NCBI GenBank assembly: GCA_023251875.1 | Contig: JAHEXY010000004.1 | Span: forward strand, 130,359 to 194,358 | Direction: 5' to 3' | DNA: 64,000 nt | Source: Bacteroidota bacterium | GTDB lineage: Bacteria; Bacteroidota; Bacteroidia; JAHEXY01 | Part shown: positions 1 through 7,109 of the stretch, in pieces | How positions within the stretch are numbered: position 1 is the stretch's first letter | Layout: every line of letters starts with the position of its first letter | Translations under genes and position numbers: made by a program | The notes under the pieces: model-generated | What the model was told of the DNA's origin: nothing | The model's database searches: none | Seen by the model: the letters and a program-made list of their open reading frames with translations, nothing else

Positions 1-78
1 ATTCAAAAAATTGTTTAGGAAGTGGAAAATTAATAATAGAATAAACAAAACATAATAGTTCGGTAATTTTTAAGATCA

Positions 79-173
79 GGGCTGAAGCCCAATAATATCA
101 AAGTTTTTCAACAACCCAGCCTTAAGGCTGGGGTTAAATGAATCCCTAGTTATCAAGGGCTTTAGCCCAAACA
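79..173. repeat. Cluster of three short GC-rich palindromic REP-like hairpins (GGGCTGAAGCCC, CCCAGCCTTAAGGCTGGG, GGGCTTTAGCCC)
   Basis: Perfect short palindromes read directly in the AT-rich region upstream of the RM gene; the same GGGCTTTAGCCC unit recurs at 4429-4440 and as GGCTTTAGCC at 11049-11058. Confidence 0.6.
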
Positions 174-251
174 AGAAAAAACTACCGAACCATTGAAAAT
201 ATAAACAACATTTTAAATCGTATTTTAGCATATAAATTATAAACGAATAAA

Positions 252-3200
252 ATGTCATTGTTTCAAAAAACAGTAGTCAAAAAATATACTAAACAACTCG
301 ATTCACAAAAGATTCAAGAAGCTTATGCCCTTTTTCAAGCTTATTTTTTAAATTCTGCCATACAAGAGAACATTAGAGAAGCCAAGGAAGAACAATTTCA
401 AGAAGGATTTTTAAGAGAATTGTTTGGTAACATTTTAGGCTATACATTAAATCCCATCCCTAATTTTAATCTCACAACAGAACTCAAAAATACAGCCAAT
501 AGCAAAAAAGTTGATGGCGCTATTTTAATTGAAAATAAAGCCATTGCTGTAATAGAACTAAAAGGTACCGATACCACAGACCTTGCAAAAATTGAAGCGC
601 AAGCTTTCGGTTATAAGAATAATCAATCGCATTGTACCTATGTAATTACTTCTAATTTTGAAAAACTACGCTTCTATATCGATAATGCAATTGAATTTAT
701 AGAATTCAATTTATTTAAGCTGAATAGAGAAGAATTTAATTTGCTTTGGCTATGCCTATCATTAAAAAGTATTGAACAAAATATTCCAAAAAGAATTAAA
801 GACGAATCGGTAAGCCATGAGGATGTAATTACAAAAAAGCTATATAATGATTATTCCGTTTTTAAAAGAGAACTGCATCAAAATTTAGTGAAGCTAAATC
901 CCCAATACCAAGCAATAGAACTTTTTAAAAAATCACAAAAACTTTTAGACCGCTTTCTTTTTATATTTTTTGCCGAAGACCGACAATTACTACCCACCAA
1001 CTTGATTTTTAGAATAAACAAAGAATGGCAGCAATTAAGGCAAATGCGTATTGAAGTATCGTTGTATGATAGATATAAAATTTACTTTAACGATTTAAAC
1101 AAAGGCGCAATAGTTAAATTACCCGCTTTTAGTGAAACCGCTTCGCAACAAAAAGAAGAATTTCAAATTTTTGCTTACAATGGCGGCTTATTTGAAGAAG
1201 ATACAATATTGAACGACATAAAAATTGATGATGCCTTACTTTTTAAACATTCTGAAATTTTAAGCAATTATGATTTTGTAAGTGAAATTGATGTAAATAT
1301 ATTGGGGCATATTTTCGAAAATTCATTAAATGAATTGGATGAAATAAAAGCACAATTAGATGGGCAAATAATAGACAAAAGCAAAACCAAAAGAAAAAAG
1401 GATGGCGTTTTTTACACACCCAAATACATAACCAAATACATTGTAGAAAATACTGTTGGTAAATTGTGTGTAGAAAAAAAAGAAAGCATACAACTCATAG
1501 AAGAACAATATACCAATGATAAAAAGAAAACAAGCAAAACAAAAAAAGAACTACTTGATAAATTAAATACCTACCGCAGTTGGTTACTTCAACTTACCAT
1601 TTGCGACCCGGCCTGTGGCTCAGGCGCATTTTTAAACCAAGCGCTTGATTTTTTAATTAACGAACACCGCTATATTGATGAACTGCAAGCCAAACTATTA
1701 GGCGCATCTTTAATTTTAAGCGATATAGAAAACAGCATATTAGAAAATAATTTATTTGGTGTAGATATTAACGAAGAAAGTGTAGAAATAGCTAAACTCT
1801 CTTTATGGTTACGCACAGCCCAACCCAATAGAAAACTGAATGATTTAAGTAATAATATTAAATGCGGCAATTCTTTAATTGATGATCCGGAAGTGGCAGG
1901 GGATAAGGCGTTTGATTGGTATGCAGAGTTTCCAAAAGTATTTCCTCGTTATAAAAATAAAAAGAAAGAAAATGCCGTAGTTGAAGTTAAAAAGAATGCT
2001 GATGGAGATTCATTAGGTAAATACATTGATGATTCTCATGGATTATTTAATGAATTTCATGAACCTCCTGCACCATACTCCTATAAAGAAAATAGCAAAG
2101 GTTTTGAGAAGCATGGTTTTGATGTAGTGATTGGCAATCCGCCTTATGTGAGACAAGAATTAATAGGAAATTATAAAGATTACTTTTCTAAAAATTACAA
2201 AGTATTTAATTTTTCAAGTGATCTATTTGCTTATTTCTATGAAAAAGCATTTTCGCTTTTAAAACAACATGGTATATTGGGTTTCATATCAAATACGTTT
2301 GATAAAACAACTGCAGGGATTAATTTAAGAGGTTATTTAAAAAACAATACCCAATTTAAAAGACTTATAGATTTCACCGAAGTTCAAATATTTGAAGGTG
2401 CTACAACTTACCCGATAATATTAATTGCCCAAAATGAGGATTCAGAAAATAATACATTTGAGTATATAAAAATTCCTAGAACAACTAATACTATTACAAT
2501 TGATATTGATTTTTATTCTGCTGTTTCGGTTAAACAACAATCATTGGATAACTCTAACTGGATTTTTAAATCAAATGTGGCAAATCTCATTTTAGCTAAA
2601 ATTCAAAAGCATAAATCAATACGAGATAAATTTGGAAAATGTTATTATGGAGTAAAAACTGCCTTAAATGAAGCTTTCATTATACAAAATGACATTGAAA
2701 TTGATGAGCATGTCAAACCGATTTATGAAGGCAAAGAACTTGATAAGTGGATAACACGGCCAGCTAAACAAAAACTACTTTTATTTAAAAGTAAATGGAC
2801 TAAAGAAAAATATGGAAATGATATTAACGAAAAGCTAGCATTAGAAAAATTAAATAAAGATTATGCAAAACATTTTGAAATACTTTTACCTTTTGAAGAT
2901 CCAGCAAAAAAAAGATATGACAAAGGTGATTTTTGGTGGGAGTTACGAAATTGTGCATACTACAATTTATTTGACAAGTCTAAAATAATATTCCCAAATC
3001 TCCAGAATAAAAATAAATTTTGTTTCGATGATAAAGGTGTTTTTGTAAATGCTCCTGCTGTATTTACACCAACAGAAAGTAAAGCATTGTTAGCTATTCT
3101 AAATTCAAAATTAGTTTGGTATTATTTAACCTCTATTTGTGTAGTTAGAAATGGTGGTTATATTGAAGTAAAACCACAGTATTTTGAACAAATACCAATT

Positions 3201-3578
3201 CCTGATTTTGATTTATCAAACATGTCTCCATTGGCAACAAATGCTAATGGAATAATAGAACTAACCCAACAGCAACAAGAAATTAATACAAAATTTATTC
3301 GTTTTCTATCCTCAAAATTCATCTCAATAAATATTAATAGGAAACTTGAAAACTGGTTTACATTATCATTTAATGAATTTGCTAAAGAGATTGTAAAACA
3401 AAAATTTAAGTTAACTATATCTGAACAAGAGGAATGGCTCACTTATTTTGAAGAGAAGAAGAAAAATATGAGTGATATGCTAATTCAAATTAGAAAGAGA
3501 GAAAAAGAAATTGATAAAATGGTTTATGAATTATATGAATTATCAGAAGATGAAATTAAAATCGTGGAGGGGGAATGA
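252..3578 (+). CDS. Type IIG (MmeI-like) fused restriction endonuclease / N6-adenine DNA methyltransferase
   Basis: 1108-aa ORF. N-terminal PD-(D/E)xK-like motif VDGAILIENKAIAVIELKG (D...ExK) as in MmeI-family nuclease domains; gamma-class MTase motif I DPACGSGAFL and motif IV NPPY (VIGNPPYVRQE); long C-terminal region consistent with a target-recognition domain; no Walker A or helicase motifs noticed. Confidence 0.8.
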   Translation: MSLFQKTVVKKYTKQLDSQKIQEAYALFQAYFLNSAIQENIREAKEEQFQEGFLRELFGNILGYTLNPIPNFNLTTELKNTANSKKVDGAILIENKAIAVIELKGTDTTDLAKIEAQAFGYKNNQSHCTYVITSNFEKLRFYIDNAIEFIEFNLFKLNREEFNLLWLCLSLKSIEQNIPKRIKDESVSHEDVITKKLYNDYSVFKRELHQNLVKLNPQYQAIELFKKSQKLLDRFLFIFFAEDRQLLPTNLIFRINKEWQQLRQMRIEVSLYDRYKIYFNDLNKGAIVKLPAFSETASQQKEEFQIFAYNGGLFEEDTILNDIKIDDALLFKHSEILSNYDFVSEIDVNILGHIFENSLNELDEIKAQLDGQIIDKSKTKRKKDGVFYTPKYITKYIVENTVGKLCVEKKESIQLIEEQYTNDKKKTSKTKKELLDKLNTYRSWLLQLTICDPACGSGAFLNQALDFLINEHRYIDELQAKLLGASLILSDIENSILENNLFGVDINEESVEIAKLSLWLRTAQPNRKLNDLSNNIKCGNSLIDDPEVAGDKAFDWYAEFPKVFPRYKNKKKENAVVEVKKNADGDSLGKYIDDSHGLFNEFHEPPAPYSYKENSKGFEKHGFDVVIGNPPYVRQELIGNYKDYFSKNYKVFNFSSDLFAYFYEKAFSLLKQHGILGFISNTFDKTTAGINLRGYLKNNTQFKRLIDFTEVQIFEGATTYPIILIAQNEDSENNTFEYIKIPRTTNTITIDIDFYSAVSVKQQSLDNSNWIFKSNVANLILAKIQKHKSIRDKFGKCYYGVKTALNEAFIIQNDIEIDEHVKPIYEGKELDKWITRPAKQKLLLFKSKWTKEKYGNDINEKLALEKLNKDYAKHFEILLPFEDPAKKRYDKGDFWWELRNCAYYNLFDKSKIIFPNLQNKNKFCFDDKGVFVNAPAVFTPTESKALLAILNSKLVWYYLTSICVVRNGGYIEVKPQYFEQIPIPDFDLSNMSPLATNANGIIELTQQQQEINTKFIRFLSSKFISININRKLENWFTLSFNEFAKEIVKQKFKLTISEQEEWLTYFEEKKKNMSDMLIQIRKREKEIDKMVYELYELSEDEIKIVEGE

Positions 3579-4264
3579 AAAAGACTAATTACATATTAAA
3601 AAATCAATCTACCATTAATGTTTCATTTTGGGCTTCTAATTATATTCAAAACCAAGCACATACTGAAAAATTAAAAAATATTGCTGATACACTTGATGGC
3701 ATAATTGACGATCTTTCGAAATATGGATGGTATATTAATGCCAATTTTTCTATAAACTTTATTCTAGAGCTCGCTAATTATGTTAAACAAAAAAACGCAA
3801 AAGAATTAGAAAATGAAATAATCAAATATTATAAGCATAATATTGACGGAATAAGAAAAAATCTATTAATAAAATATAATGATAGACAAATTTTACTAGA
3901 AGAAGCCTTTAATGCTCATAAAAGAGAAATGTATTTTTCCTCAACCATATTATTCTTATCTCAAGCAGATGGGTTATGTGATGGGAATTTCTTCCTGTTA
4001 GCTAAAAACAAAAAAAAACTTAAGACTTTTCTTAACCAAAAACAAAGTCCAGATGTTGTAAATATTGTTCTTGGCAAAGAAAGCGCTATTGATTCATGGA
4101 CTGGTCATAAACAAAAATATTTTAGTGATCTAAATAGACATGATATTATGCATGGATACTGCTTTGATTTTGGCAATGAAGTTAACAGCTTTAAGGCATT
4201 ATCGTTATTATGTTTTATGTCAGATTTTATTGATAGCTATAATAAATTTGAAAAATATAAGTAG
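3575..4264 (+). CDS. Hypothetical protein, translationally coupled to the RM enzyme (ATGA stop/start overlap); no recognisable domain
   Basis: 229-aa ORF whose ATG overlaps the TGA of the upstream gene (GGGGAATGAAAAAG); no signal peptide or TM segment evident; no motif I can assign. Confidence 0.6.
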   Translation: MKKTNYILKNQSTINVSFWASNYIQNQAHTEKLKNIADTLDGIIDDLSKYGWYINANFSINFILELANYVKQKNAKELENEIIKYYKHNIDGIRKNLLIKYNDRQILLEEAFNAHKREMYFSSTILFLSQADGLCDGNFFLLAKNKKKLKTFLNQKQSPDVVNIVLGKESAIDSWTGHKQKYFSDLNRHDIMHGYCFDFGNEVNSFKALSLLCFMSDFIDSYNKFEKYK

Positions 4265-4267
4265 CTA

Positions 4268-4933
4268 TCATGGCTAAAGCCCTTTATACCCTACATTGTT
4301 TTTTTCTCCGCCATAAATGGCGGAGTTAGTTGAGCGAGAACGGTATAGTTAATGCAAATAAAGATAAATGCAGAATACCAACCCCAGCTTAAAAGCTGGG
4401 GGGCATAAGAATAAGCAAGAAGTAAAATGGGCTTTAGCCCAAAAAAATAAAATATTATGGCTTTTGTAAAAATATGGGTACACGCAGTTTGGGGCACAAA
4501 AAATAGATTTCCTTTTCTTGTTAATGGAGTTAAACAACAAGTAATTCAGCATATAAAAGAGAATGCCATAAAAAAGCAAATTTATATTGATTGTATTGAT
4601 GGCCATACAGAACATCTTCATGCATTAATAGCTCTTAATGCAGATAGAGATATTGCCAAAACAATGCAATTGATAAAAGGCGAATCTACACATTGGATAA
4701 ATCAACAAAAAATTACACGAAGTAAATTTGAATGGGCCGATGAATATTTTGCAGTTTCGGTAAGTGAATCAATGTTAGATAAAGTAAGAGAATATATCCA
4801 TGGACAAGAAGAACATCATAAAAAAACAACTTTTACCGAAGAGTATAATAATTTTATAGGCAAATATAATTTTCAAAATCATGGCTAAAGCCAATTCCAT
4901 TTTTCAGTCTATTTTAATCTCCGCCATAAATGG
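4268..4933 (+). mobile_element. REPtron-like unit: RAYT gene flanked by REP hairpins and ~55-bp direct repeats
   Basis: Left flank 4268-4325 and right flank 4878-4933 both contain ATCATGGCTAAAGCC...TCTCCGCCATAAATGG; palindromes CTCCGCCATAAATGGCGGAG (4306-4325), CCCCAGCTTAAAAGCTGGGG (4382-4401), GGGCTTTAGCCC (4429-4440) lie between the left flank and the RAYT gene. Confidence 0.65.
4457..4888 (+). CDS. REP-associated tyrosine transposase (RAYT; IS200/IS605-like Y1 HUH transposase)
   Basis: 143 aa; HUH motif HTEHLHALI; N-terminal HAVWGTKNR; C-terminal catalytic-Tyr region VREYIHGQEEHH; flanked by REP hairpins. Confidence 0.8.
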   Translation: MAFVKIWVHAVWGTKNRFPFLVNGVKQQVIQHIKENAIKKQIYIDCIDGHTEHLHALIALNADRDIAKTMQLIKGESTHWINQQKITRSKFEWADEYFAVSVSESMLDKVREYIHGQEEHHKKTTFTEEYNNFIGKYNFQNHG

Positions 4934-7109
4934 TAGGTTTATAAGTTTACTATGCATGCTTGGTATAAGCTTTTCTAGCTTCTCCCAAACCGATTCTACC
5001 TTTTTTCTCCCCAATCAACATCCCGAAATAATGCTTTCAGGATTTGGTTTTAATAATTCAGGCGGAAGTGATGTTTTTAATCATTGTGCCGGTATTATAA
5101 GCGATGGAACAAGATTATTTTTGTGCGACAGGTGGAATAATAGAGTATTGATTTGGAATACAATTCCTCAAACTAATCTTGAGCCCGATCTTGTACTTGG
5201 ACAAAAAGATTTTAATACAAACGATCCGGGATCTAAATTAGATCAATTTGATTGGCCTGGTGCTGTTTCTGTTTCAAGTGATGGTAAATTGCTTATTGCT
5301 GATACCTATAACAATCGGGTTTTAGTTTGGAATACTATTCCAACAACAAATGGGCAGGCTGCTGATTTTGCAATAACTGATAATATATCATGGCCCTGGG
5401 GGGTGTGGAGCAACGGAAAAAAACTAATTATTGTTAATACCCAGCAAACGCAATCAAATGCAATAATGGTATGGAATACTTTTCCTGCAAGCAGTTCTGT
5501 AAAATATGATTTCAAACTTACTGCCGGTGGAGATTTGGGAACACCTAGAACAATTACAACAAATGGTGATTTTTTAATGATAGGTGATCACAATTCAAAA
5601 AATGCGAATGGGCCTCAGGGAAATTATGTATGGACAACATTTCCGCAATCAGATGTTGTTTATGATTATTTTACTACTGACCCTTATGATAAAAATTATG
5701 CTTGGCTACAAGGAACTGTTACTTCAGATAGTATGCTAATTGCATTGGGCCGCCAACTGCATATTTGGAAAACACTTCCAAACACATCTTCTCAAAAACC
5801 GGATATTTCATTAAGCTATAATTTTAATGGGGGAGATGGTTCAGATGTGGCAGTAGCCGGAGGAAAAGTATTTGTCTCTTGCATGAATGACAATCGTGTT
5901 TTTGTTTTTAATAGTATCCCAACATCTTCTTCGGCCCAGCCCGATTTTGTATTGGGAAGTCCTGCCATTGACACAAACACACTTACAATAAATCATTTTA
6001 TTACCAATCCGGTTCCTGTTTCTGATGGTGAGCATTTATTTGTTTCTTCTGATTTTGATAAAACCTTAAGCATCTGGGAAAATTTACCGGATTCAAGTGC
6101 AACCCCTCCCGATACAATTATTAATCTTCAAGAAGCCCCTTGGGATAACGAACTCCATGGCGATACACTTGTTTTGGCTGGAAAAAAAACAATTTTTATT
6201 TGGAAATCACTTCCCTTAAACGGCCAGCAGCCCGATTTTACCCTTCAAGATCATATAGGATCCATTTATTTTAATGAAATTAGAGGTGTAGCTTTTGATG
6301 ATAGCTATTTTTACATTGCTGATAATAATACGGTATATGTATGGAGTGGCTTTCCAACTACCTCTTCTTATGCTGATCCTATGCTAACATTACATTTTGC
6401 AAGTGTTATGAAATTATGCAGTGATGAAGGTTATTTATCAATAACCGAAATGGAAGCAGCTCCTCCCAAAGCAGTGCTTTATAAAATTTCTAATTTTCCA
6501 AATGATACCAATCCTTATAAAACCATTGAAGGGCAGAATGGATATTATTTTAATTTACCTATGCACACCATTACTTCAAACGGGCATTTATTTTTAGCAA
6601 ACTCTATTTTTAATGTTGTGTATGCTTGGAAAGACATCAATGATGCCGGAGATTTTTCAAAAGTAATTGTATTGGGCAGCGATACAACAATAGAAACCAT
6701 TCCTTGCATTGGTGATAGTACATTATTTTGGCCTGCAAGTTTAAGTTTTGATGGCAAACACCTTTGGGTAGGAGAATTTAAATTTTCAGGAAGGATTTTA
6801 AGATACACCATTCCCTCTGAATTAACGAGCATTAAGAAAATAAATACAAAAACTAATTTAGTTTCAAATATTAAAATATATCCCAATCCTGTAAGTGATC
6901 AAATAAACATAAATTTTCCGTCTATAATAAATGAAAGTAAAGTTGAAATTTCTCTTTTCGATTACACGGGAAAATGCGTAAAAAAATATGAAACTGGTCT
7001 TTTTAAAACTTTCTCTATTGATGTGAATAGCTTTGCATCCGGACTATATCAATTAAGAATTTCAAATACAAATACTGTATTTAGCCAAAAAATCTTAATT
7101 ATTAGGTAA
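4881..7109 (+). CDS. Secreted NHL-repeat beta-propeller protein with T9SS type-A C-terminal sorting domain
   Basis: Repeated NNRVLxWNTIP-type units (DRWNNRVLIWNTIP, DTYNNRVLVWNTIP, MNDNRVFVFNSIP); C-terminus IYPNPVSDQININ...GLYQLRI typical of the Por secretion tail. First 25 codons are encoded by the right REP repeat, so the true start may be the ATG at 4956. Confidence 0.65.
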   Translation: MAKANSIFQSILISAINGRFISLLCMLGISFSSFSQTDSTFFLPNQHPEIMLSGFGFNNSGGSDVFNHCAGIISDGTRLFLCDRWNNRVLIWNTIPQTNLEPDLVLGQKDFNTNDPGSKLDQFDWPGAVSVSSDGKLLIADTYNNRVLVWNTIPTTNGQAADFAITDNISWPWGVWSNGKKLIIVNTQQTQSNAIMVWNTFPASSSVKYDFKLTAGGDLGTPRTITTNGDFLMIGDHNSKNANGPQGNYVWTTFPQSDVVYDYFTTDPYDKNYAWLQGTVTSDSMLIALGRQLHIWKTLPNTSSQKPDISLSYNFNGGDGSDVAVAGGKVFVSCMNDNRVFVFNSIPTSSSAQPDFVLGSPAIDTNTLTINHFITNPVPVSDGEHLFVSSDFDKTLSIWENLPDSSATPPDTIINLQEAPWDNELHGDTLVLAGKKTIFIWKSLPLNGQQPDFTLQDHIGSIYFNEIRGVAFDDSYFYIADNNTVYVWSGFPTTSSYADPMLTLHFASVMKLCSDEGYLSITEMEAAPPKAVLYKISNFPNDTNPYKTIEGQNGYYFNLPMHTITSNGHLFLANSIFNVVYAWKDINDAGDFSKVIVLGSDTTIETIPCIGDSTLFWPASLSFDGKHLWVGEFKFSGRILRYTIPSELTSIKKINTKTNLVSNIKIYPNPVSDQININFPSIINESKVEISLFDYTGKCVKKYETGLFKTFSIDVNSFASGLYQLRISNTNTVFSQKILIIR

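Follow-up and report, generated by a model that had tools for sequence, protein, structure and literature searches.

A Type IIG restriction-modification gene of a Bacteroidota bacterium and the predicted HEPN-type passenger gene in its variable 3' slot

At least 16 clades of HEPN proteins, including AbiU2, AbiJ, ApeA, and EC042_2821, are linked to diverse restriction-modification (R-M) operons, an association that has been read as multi-pronged defense by analogy with PrrC-EcoprrI (Anantharaman et al. 2013, PMC3710099); the Rx4H motif is the signature of HEPN RNases (PMC3710099). The window analyzed here, a stretch of 64,000 nucleotides from a Bacteroidota bacterium (contig JAHEXY010000004.1, positions 130,359 to 194,358 of the forward strand), contains the gene of a 1108-amino-acid Type IIG enzyme whose stop codon overlaps the start of a gene for a 229-amino-acid protein. 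The arrangement fits what has been published on HEPN genes carried along in R-M operons: as in the R-M-embedded cases (PMC3710099), a small Rx4H protein is encoded on the same strand immediately downstream of an R-M gene, and the family to which it belongs is present in prophages and defense islands and is facultatively linked to R-M systems of differing types. What is new is the particular family, its pairing with a Type IIG enzyme, and the hypervariable, often translationally coupled, 3' slot of the enzyme clade. An earlier reading of the window (the original prediction) had proposed a two-gene defense module in which the smaller protein is an obligatory partner of the enzyme. Both open reading frames (ORFs), at 252..3578 and 3575..4264, and their ATGA overlap were confirmed, and a real Type IIG enzyme and a plausible defense gene are indeed present; the dedicated pairing is what did not stand. 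The explanation we prefer, with a probability of roughly 0.6, is that these are two separable defense genes and that the small one is an interchangeable passenger for an HEPN-type RNase effector, not a dedicated partner.

The enzyme side of the pairing was assessed in 80 species-representative loci with relatives of the enzyme, about 70 of which were informative for neighbors. The 229-amino-acid family is absent from 79 of these 80 loci, so that the co-occurrence check proposed with the original prediction finds enzyme relatives routinely lacking the small gene. The sole locus with a family member, L017 (5992-12159), encodes a protein of 288 amino acids (hidden Markov model (HMM) E value 4.8e-36) that is not adjacent to the enzyme gene; the co-directional trio there consists of a 1060-amino-acid enzyme relative, a 676-amino-acid protein with an N-terminal DUF4365, and the family member. 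In about 33 of the ~70 loci, a co-directional ORF starts between -25 and +35 bp relative to the enzyme stop codon, and these ORFs are almost all singletons by BLAST. When 20 slot ORFs were scanned with Pfam, AbiH was matched in L037 (9184-10176) and L078, GmrSD together with DUF4268 in L016 (9140-11647), Mrr in L053 (9308-10231), an AAA_15/AAA_21 ATPase in L051 (9011-10900), DUF3800 in L036, DUF4365 in L017, DUF6161 in L066, a DnaJ domain in L070, and, weakly, PLDc_2 in L062; the scan gave no Pfam match for 9 of the 20.

The junction itself is not peculiar to the gene pair of the window. Across the clade, the slot ORF frequently has a 4-base overlap with the stop codon or a start no more than ~10 bp from it. 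A 4-base overlap with unrelated downstream ORFs was found in L014, L020, L025, L030, L078, and L093. The first of these holds the closest enzyme relative with any downstream sequence (70% identity): the enzyme ends ...GTGGAAGGGAAATGA, and the unrelated ORF that overlaps it at an ATGA junction opens MSCEKITYDIDGVALVV... and runs for at least 68 codons to the contig end. Since unrelated ORFs share the junction, the overlap goes with the position and not with the pair. With the small family at 1 of 80 loci, and non-adjacent there, and an unrelated overlapping ORF in the closest relative, the proposal of an obligatory partner had to be abandoned. Upstream of the enzyme relatives, too, no partner is conserved: 59 of the 70 neighbors there are singletons. 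The position 3' of this Type IIG clade is thus a variable cargo slot, often occupied by defense-related genes.

Variable defense hotspots next to conserved anchor genes are exemplified by those of P2/P4 (PMC9122126). The 3' slot resembles such hotspots in having a conserved anchor, the Type IIG gene in this case, with differing and often defense-related genes behind it; it is unlike them in that the anchor is itself a chromosomal defense gene and the cargo often overlaps it by 4 bases. For this slot, neither an integrase nor an attachment site was identified. The Type IIG gene occurs in hundreds of Bacteroidota species, its 3' junction could anchor a search for new defense genes, and the slot pattern is a more useful product than the gene pair itself.

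The 229-amino-acid family, for its part, occurs mostly apart from R-M genes. A word-indexed search gave 16 relatives, and an exhaustive HMM search of 1.84 billion cluster representatives (clusters at 50% identity) gave 3,794 at E <= 1e-3, 2,068 at E <= 1e-10, and 475 at E <= 1e-30; with thousands of cluster representatives, the family is widespread. Homologues are 22-47% identical to the window protein. Those nearest to it (33-47% identity) are found among housekeeping genes (P0002), after a glycosyltransferase gene (P0016), among hypothetical genes (P0005), next to a TIR gene (P0009), and two genes past a complete Type II R-M system (P0007) that comprises a Dam-type methyltransferase and a PADLOC REase_II match at 9e-144. 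A Type IIG gene with the family immediately 3' of it occurs a second time, independently, in L132 (2603-8533), where one of the more distant members (22-30% identity), of 292 amino acids, starts 3 bp after the gene of a 1131-amino-acid enzyme (PADLOC PDLC03610, 9.7e-94). That enzyme belongs to a different family and resembles the window enzyme around motif I only; an integrase gene lies upstream in the L132 island and a PDC-S31-like gene of 483 amino acids lies downstream. The closest subfamily is also present in 14 metagenome loci; nothing similar to either Type IIG enzyme was found in them, and the neighbor families listed there were integrases (three loci), housekeeping genes, a YoeB toxin, and a TIR domain.

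Among the more distant members, at 22-30% identity, are those carried on 38 IMG/VR contigs (L094-L131), where the neighbors are tail and baseplate genes of P2 type, a P22 portal gene, integrases, and cI-like repressors. These viral copies sometimes adjoin HEPN_AbiV, Abi_C, FRG, or HNH genes, and a methyltransferase was not among the frequent neighbors in the 38 contigs. The phage and prophage copies are longer (234-382 amino acids), with an extra N-terminal region, and several of them have P2-type tail genes (gpR/gpS) on one side and baseplate genes on the other, which is a typical place for moron or defense genes. Elsewhere among the more distant members, one adjoins a Vsr gene and has a fused Eco57I-BsuBI gene ~6 kb off (L133), another adjoins an AbiL-like PDC-M38A/B pair (L134), and L135 and L136 provide toxin-antitoxin or prophage contexts.

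From its prophage, island, and solo chromosomal contexts, the family is judged to be mobile and usually alone. It lies beside varied R-M genes more often than chance placement would give, yet in a small minority of cases; a facultative and recurrent link to R-M systems does exist (L132, L017, L011, L133). The original prediction was to fall if the small protein proved to be a widespread housekeeping family found independently of R-M genes, or if homologues of the enzyme were routinely found without it. Essentially both were observed, save that the family, found on viral contigs, in islands flanked by integrases, and at ordinary chromosomal sites, is not a housekeeping one.

The 229-amino-acid protein had been called unassignable, and it still has no significant match to Pfam, NCBIfam, or PADLOC models; matches to Phage_TAC_9 (E value 0.24) and spbK (E value 0.0029, 15 bits) were disregarded as noise. 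It does match phrog_28904, a phage family without assigned function, at 4.7e-23, and none of the 90 family members listed carries a precomputed Pfam domain. Conservation was read from an alignment of 74 family members with 20-47% identity to the window protein. G51, W52, H193, G194, and N204 are invariant in it, and R104, H115, D132, R188, H189, and K207 are among the near-invariant residues. The conserved motifs are EAFxAH, SxxLFLxQADG, and LNRHxxxHG, the last of which includes the Rx4H; the Rx4-6H expected of an HEPN protein is thus conserved across the 74 members, R188 being retained in at least 90%. Because R188, H193, H115, D132, N204, and K207 are near-invariant at such low identities, a conserved active or binding site is indicated.

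An AlphaFold2 model built from the 74-sequence alignment (pLDDT 87, pTM 0.83), which replaced an earlier 16-sequence model (pLDDT 72), is confident and entirely helical. Its weak fold matches include Roquin HEPN/ROQ (6.4), Csm6 (5.7), AF0298 (5.1), ST0689 (5.0), TT1696 (4.9), AbiA (4.8), sacsin HEPN (4.8), and 4nqf (4.7), and the remaining ones are generic helical repeats over ~60 residues. On the motif and these recurrent weak matches, with no profile match, membership of the HEPN group is probable. The Rx4H, the fold matches, and the occurrence in prophages and defense islands make the protein plausibly a defense effector.

In its size, its wholly helical build, and the lack of an evident antitoxin gene, the protein is like the lactococcal Abi HEPN proteins (AbiV, AbiD/AbiF), which are ~200-300 amino acids long. 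It is unlike AbiV, which typically lacks the H of Rx4-6H (PMC3710099), in that the corresponding histidine is invariant throughout the family. It also differs from the R-M-embedded HEPN proteins in being unrecognized by the Pfam HEPN models and in having an invariant GW(Y) motif in its N-terminal half. Unlike PrrC or RloC, it has no ABC-ATPase domain, and its neighbor belongs to Type IIG, in place of the Type I system of PrrC-EcoprrI. A PrrC/RloC-type anticodon nuclease was rejected on the length of 229 amino acids, the purely helical model, and the failure of any ATPase model to match; nor is the conserved R-M embedding of that type seen, the linkage being found here, in L132, and loosely in L017 and being absent in 79 of the 80 loci and from the majority of the family's contexts. 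An HEPN-MNT toxin-antitoxin system was rejected too, as no minimal nucleotidyltransferase gene lies in positions 1-5000 of the window; L135 is the only locus with an NTP_transf_2 gene (~500 bp upstream).

Under the preferred reading, the Type IIG polypeptide would methylate adenine in its own recognition site, and its N-terminal PD-(D/E)xK nuclease would cut unmodified incoming DNA. The enzyme gene and the small gene, with no terminator-like site between them, would be transcribed together. Once triggered, the predicted HEPN-type RNase would cut cellular or phage RNA and bring about abortive infection or growth arrest, a second layer of defense, and its gene would be one swappable passenger in the variable slot 3' of the enzyme gene. 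If this is correct, the locus would combine DNA restriction with an RNA-targeting abortive-infection effector. An effector family of thousands of clusters that is also phage-borne and has no curated model is worth cataloging. Our understanding of the mechanism of Type IIG enzymes is unchanged by the locus.

Several results weigh against this reading. A Foldseek search of the PDB with the model of the 229-amino-acid protein found nothing, and PDB sequence searches, whether with the single protein or with the 74-sequence profile, found designed helical bundles only. At E <= 0.01, no Pfam or NCBIfam HEPN model matched the window protein or its 74 relatives; a weak match to HEPN_AbiV in 1 of 16 relatives (E value 0.006) was the lone HEPN hit, and a match to a curated profile is thus missing. 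The homologue P0005 has the UniRef name 'RiboL-PSP-HEPN domain-containing', which a Pfam search at E <= 1 failed to reproduce; the 'Ribo L-PSP-HEPN' clade is described as distantly related to AbiF/AbiD (PMC3710099). Phospholip_B, the commonest weak Pfam match (4 of 16 members, best E value 0.0059), was judged to be due to chance. Finally, the 4-base overlap and two independent Type IIG placements (L132, L017) exceed random placement, and for that reason a looser functional cooperation of the 229-amino-acid protein with R-M enzymes is possible.

The weakness of the fold evidence favors a reading in which the small protein is a non-catalytic helical hitch-hiker in mobile DNA, such as a regulator, a phage anti-defense or superinfection-exclusion factor, or an antitoxin-like HEPN protein, with an Rx4H that serves binding or has no role. 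HEPN-fold proteins without RNase activity are known (PMC3710099), the family is common in phage genomes, and phrog_28904 has no assigned function. The near-invariant residues named above indicate an active or binding site, however, and the neighbors are often defense genes (AbiV, Abi_C, a TIR gene, PDC-M38, R-M systems), so we regard a hitch-hiker as unlikely.

The 4-base overlap and the Type IIG placements also bear on a PrrC-like guard, in which the enzyme would bind the HEPN-like protein and keep the RNase inactive until phage anti-restriction released it and the infection was aborted; translational coupling would then secure matched amounts of both proteins. The ATGA overlap is what such a guard would lead one to expect, members adjoin single-chain R-M enzymes from two Type IIG families that are unrelated to each other (the window and, with a 2-bp gap, L132), the L017 gene cluster holds a member together with a relative of the window enzyme, the L011 member is near a Type II R-M system, and an extension of the PrrC-EcoprrI precedent to R-M-linked HEPN genes has been proposed (PMC3710099). 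Yet the gene is missing from 79 of 80 enzyme relatives, and most sampled members have no R-M gene alongside, including 14 of 14 metagenome loci and ~37 viral loci. A protein that depends on one particular R-M partner for its silencing should not be viable alone. The overlapping junction is also found with unrelated cargo, and the 229-amino-acid protein lacks the regulatory ATPase domain of PrrC. A guard is therefore unlikely. We are slightly more doubtful of a bolder version, in which a new HEPN clade latently guards the Type IIG enzyme while a recombination slot at the stop codon swaps translationally coupled second-line effectors; if a guard and a cassette slot were both true, the slot would be a ready catalog of undescribed defense genes, 9 of the 20 scanned ORFs being without a recognizable domain. 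An accessory subunit that modulates the specificity, regulation, or activity of the enzyme is very improbable, for it has only the tight overlap and shared orientation in its favor, whereas the clade occurs in at least 583 species-representative genomes with a different 3' neighbor almost every time, the enzyme retains its own nuclease, methyltransferase, and specificity domains, the small family is widespread without such an enzyme, and no co-distribution was seen.

The features of the locus are collected in Table 1.

Table 1. Features of the Type IIG locus and its surroundings, in positions of the window
Feature	Position	Strand	Remarks
Upstream REP-like hairpin cluster	79..168	.	GGGCTGAAGCCC at 79, CCCAGCCTTAAGGCTGGG at 115, GGGCTTTAGCCC at 157
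Type IIG restriction-modification enzyme, 1108 aa	252..3578	+	nuclease, N6-adenine methyltransferase, and specificity domain in a single chain
PD-(D/E)xK nuclease motif D88...E102-L-K104	513..563	+	from the translation; invariant in alignment A2
Methyltransferase motif I, DPACGSGAFL, residues 452-461	1605..1634	+	all ten residues invariant
Lineage-specific linker of ~44 aa, residues 565-608, just before NPPY	1944..2075	+	BLASTP against P0022 breaks at 564/609
Methyltransferase motif IV, NPPY, residues 629-632	2136..2147	+	invariant
TaqI_C-like target recognition domain, residues 823-983	2718..3200	+	Pfam PF12950, 3e-11
ATGA stop/start overlap of the two genes	3575..3578	+	ATG 3575-3577 overlaps TGA 3576-3578
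All-helical 229-aa protein of a large unannotated family	3575..4264	+	probable HEPN-type (Abi-like) RNase effector, predicted
Rx4H motif, R188-H-D-I-M-H193 within LNRHDIMHG	4136..4153	+	H193 invariant, R188 >=90% conserved
Downstream REP-like hairpin cluster	4272..4440	.	GGCTAAAGCC, CTCCGCCATAAATGGCGGAG, CCCCAGCTTAAAAGCTGGGG, GGGCTTTAGCCC
Free-standing RAYT / IS200-like Y1 protein, 143 aa	4457..4888	+	Pfam Y1_Tnp, 2e-23
aa, amino acids; REP, repetitive extragenic palindromic.

To judge from its sequence, the 1108-amino-acid protein is a single-chain Type IIG R-M enzyme, and all the features of that class that can be tested on sequence were found. It matches the PADLOC REase_MTase_IIG model PDLC03609 with 950 bits over residues 1-566, and its Pfam matches are Eco57I (2.8e-41), MmeI_Mtase (2.1e-13), N6_Mtase (6.5e-12), and TaqI_C (3e-11). 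The D...ExK, DPACGSGAFL, and NPPY motifs reported in the original prediction are present; D88, E102, K104, and both methyltransferase motifs are invariant across an alignment (A2) of 14 sequences, comprising the window enzyme and 13 relatives at 58-73% identity. As in Type IIG enzymes of the Eco57I, BpuSI, and MmeI kind, an N-terminal PD-(D/E)xK nuclease, a gamma-class N6-adenine methyltransferase with DPACGSG and NPPY, and a C-terminal TaqI_C-like specificity domain are predicted in one polypeptide, and there is no separate methyltransferase or specificity gene. With its specificity domain built in, the enzyme has no separate S subunit, nor is there a conserved neighbor on either side in 70-80 relatives. 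It is unlike known Type IIG enzymes in being distant from every solved or characterized one and in having a 44-amino-acid linker before NPPY, at a site where many relatives carry a RAYT-like domain. More than 8,000 database proteins match it at E <= 1e-50, and relatives are encoded in at least 583 stretches of species-representative genomes, nearly all of Bacteroidota.

The description of the enzyme as MmeI-like holds for its architecture and fails for its family. MmeI_Mtase is the sole MmeI model of Pfam above its cut-off (50.5 bits against 27); MmeI_N (24.9 bits, residues 36-165, 2.8e-5) and MmeI_hel (18.5 bits) fall under their 27-bit cut-offs, and the Pfam scan found neither MmeI_TRD nor MmeI_C and gave TaqI_C instead. 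Strict membership of the MmeI family was rejected on these MmeI-specific models, which are below cut-off or absent. The solved MmeI matches the window enzyme at 2.6e-6, over ~120 residues around motif I only, and the methyltransferase domains of CamA and BrxX/PglX are nearer to the window enzyme than solved MmeI is. A BREX PglX was also rejected: BREX_1_MTaseX scored 138.7 bits against an NCBIfam cut-off of 500, an N-terminal nuclease is present, and the neighbors are the 229-amino-acid gene, the RAYT gene, and housekeeping genes, with no brx genes among them.

Some relatives of the enzyme carry an additional domain. In 29 of 108 close relatives (~27%; P0021-P0131), an insert of 175-303 amino acids lies between FPxVF and GNPPY, inside the methyltransferase domain, at the position of the 44-amino-acid linker of the window enzyme. 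It matches Pfam Y1_Tnp and is RAYT/IS200-like; the HUH motif (HxHhLL) is present in 28 of the 29 inserts and Y[IV]xxNRxKH in all 29. The conservation of these motifs suggests that restriction enzymes with the insert incorporate a working HUH endonuclease, and no description of a RAYT/HUH domain fused into R-M enzymes was found in literature searches. A relationship between the free-standing RAYT of the window and the inserted domain was rejected, as no similarity is detectable. In the Flavobacterium restrictum enzyme (P0022), short G[LF]KP[LI] or RLQPI peptides appear repeatedly, in frame, in and near the inserted domain, at residues ~410-420, 675-700, 740-750, and 1175-1185, with no counterpart in the window enzyme. 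Judged from the protein sequence alone, they resemble translated REP-type palindromes (GGGCTTAAGCCC-like); if they are such, REP elements would have entered a coding gene in frame.

As originally reported, REP hairpins bracket the gene pair of the window and a RAYT gene adjoins it. The hairpins are of the types GGGCTnnAGCCC, CCCAGC-n-GCTGGG, and CTCCGCCATAAATGGCGGAG; they cluster at 79-170, 4272-4440, and 4883-4933, and just one more occurs in the other 59 kb. Two hairpins of the downstream cluster score as terminator-like on the minus strand, and the terminator scan gave no such site between the enzyme gene and the 229-amino-acid gene. Promoter-like sites were fewer than in shuffles in a scan that does not cover Bacteroidota promoters. 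The GC content is 0.293 for the R-M gene and 0.262 for the small gene, against a window mean of 0.324. The RAYT ORF is intact, with HLH (HUH) and YIHGQEEHH motifs, and is context, outside the R-M unit. At 4881-4935, its stop codon overlaps the mechanically called start of a 742-amino-acid ORF (NHL repeats plus Por_Secre_tail), the first ~17 codons of which traverse REP-like sequence (GGCTAAAGCC, CTCCGCCATAAATGG); the true start of that ORF is probably a downstream Met (MLGISFSSFSQ...). Independent metagenome assemblies of the locus (L001, L002) all break ~100 bp upstream of the R-M gene, inside the REP cluster.

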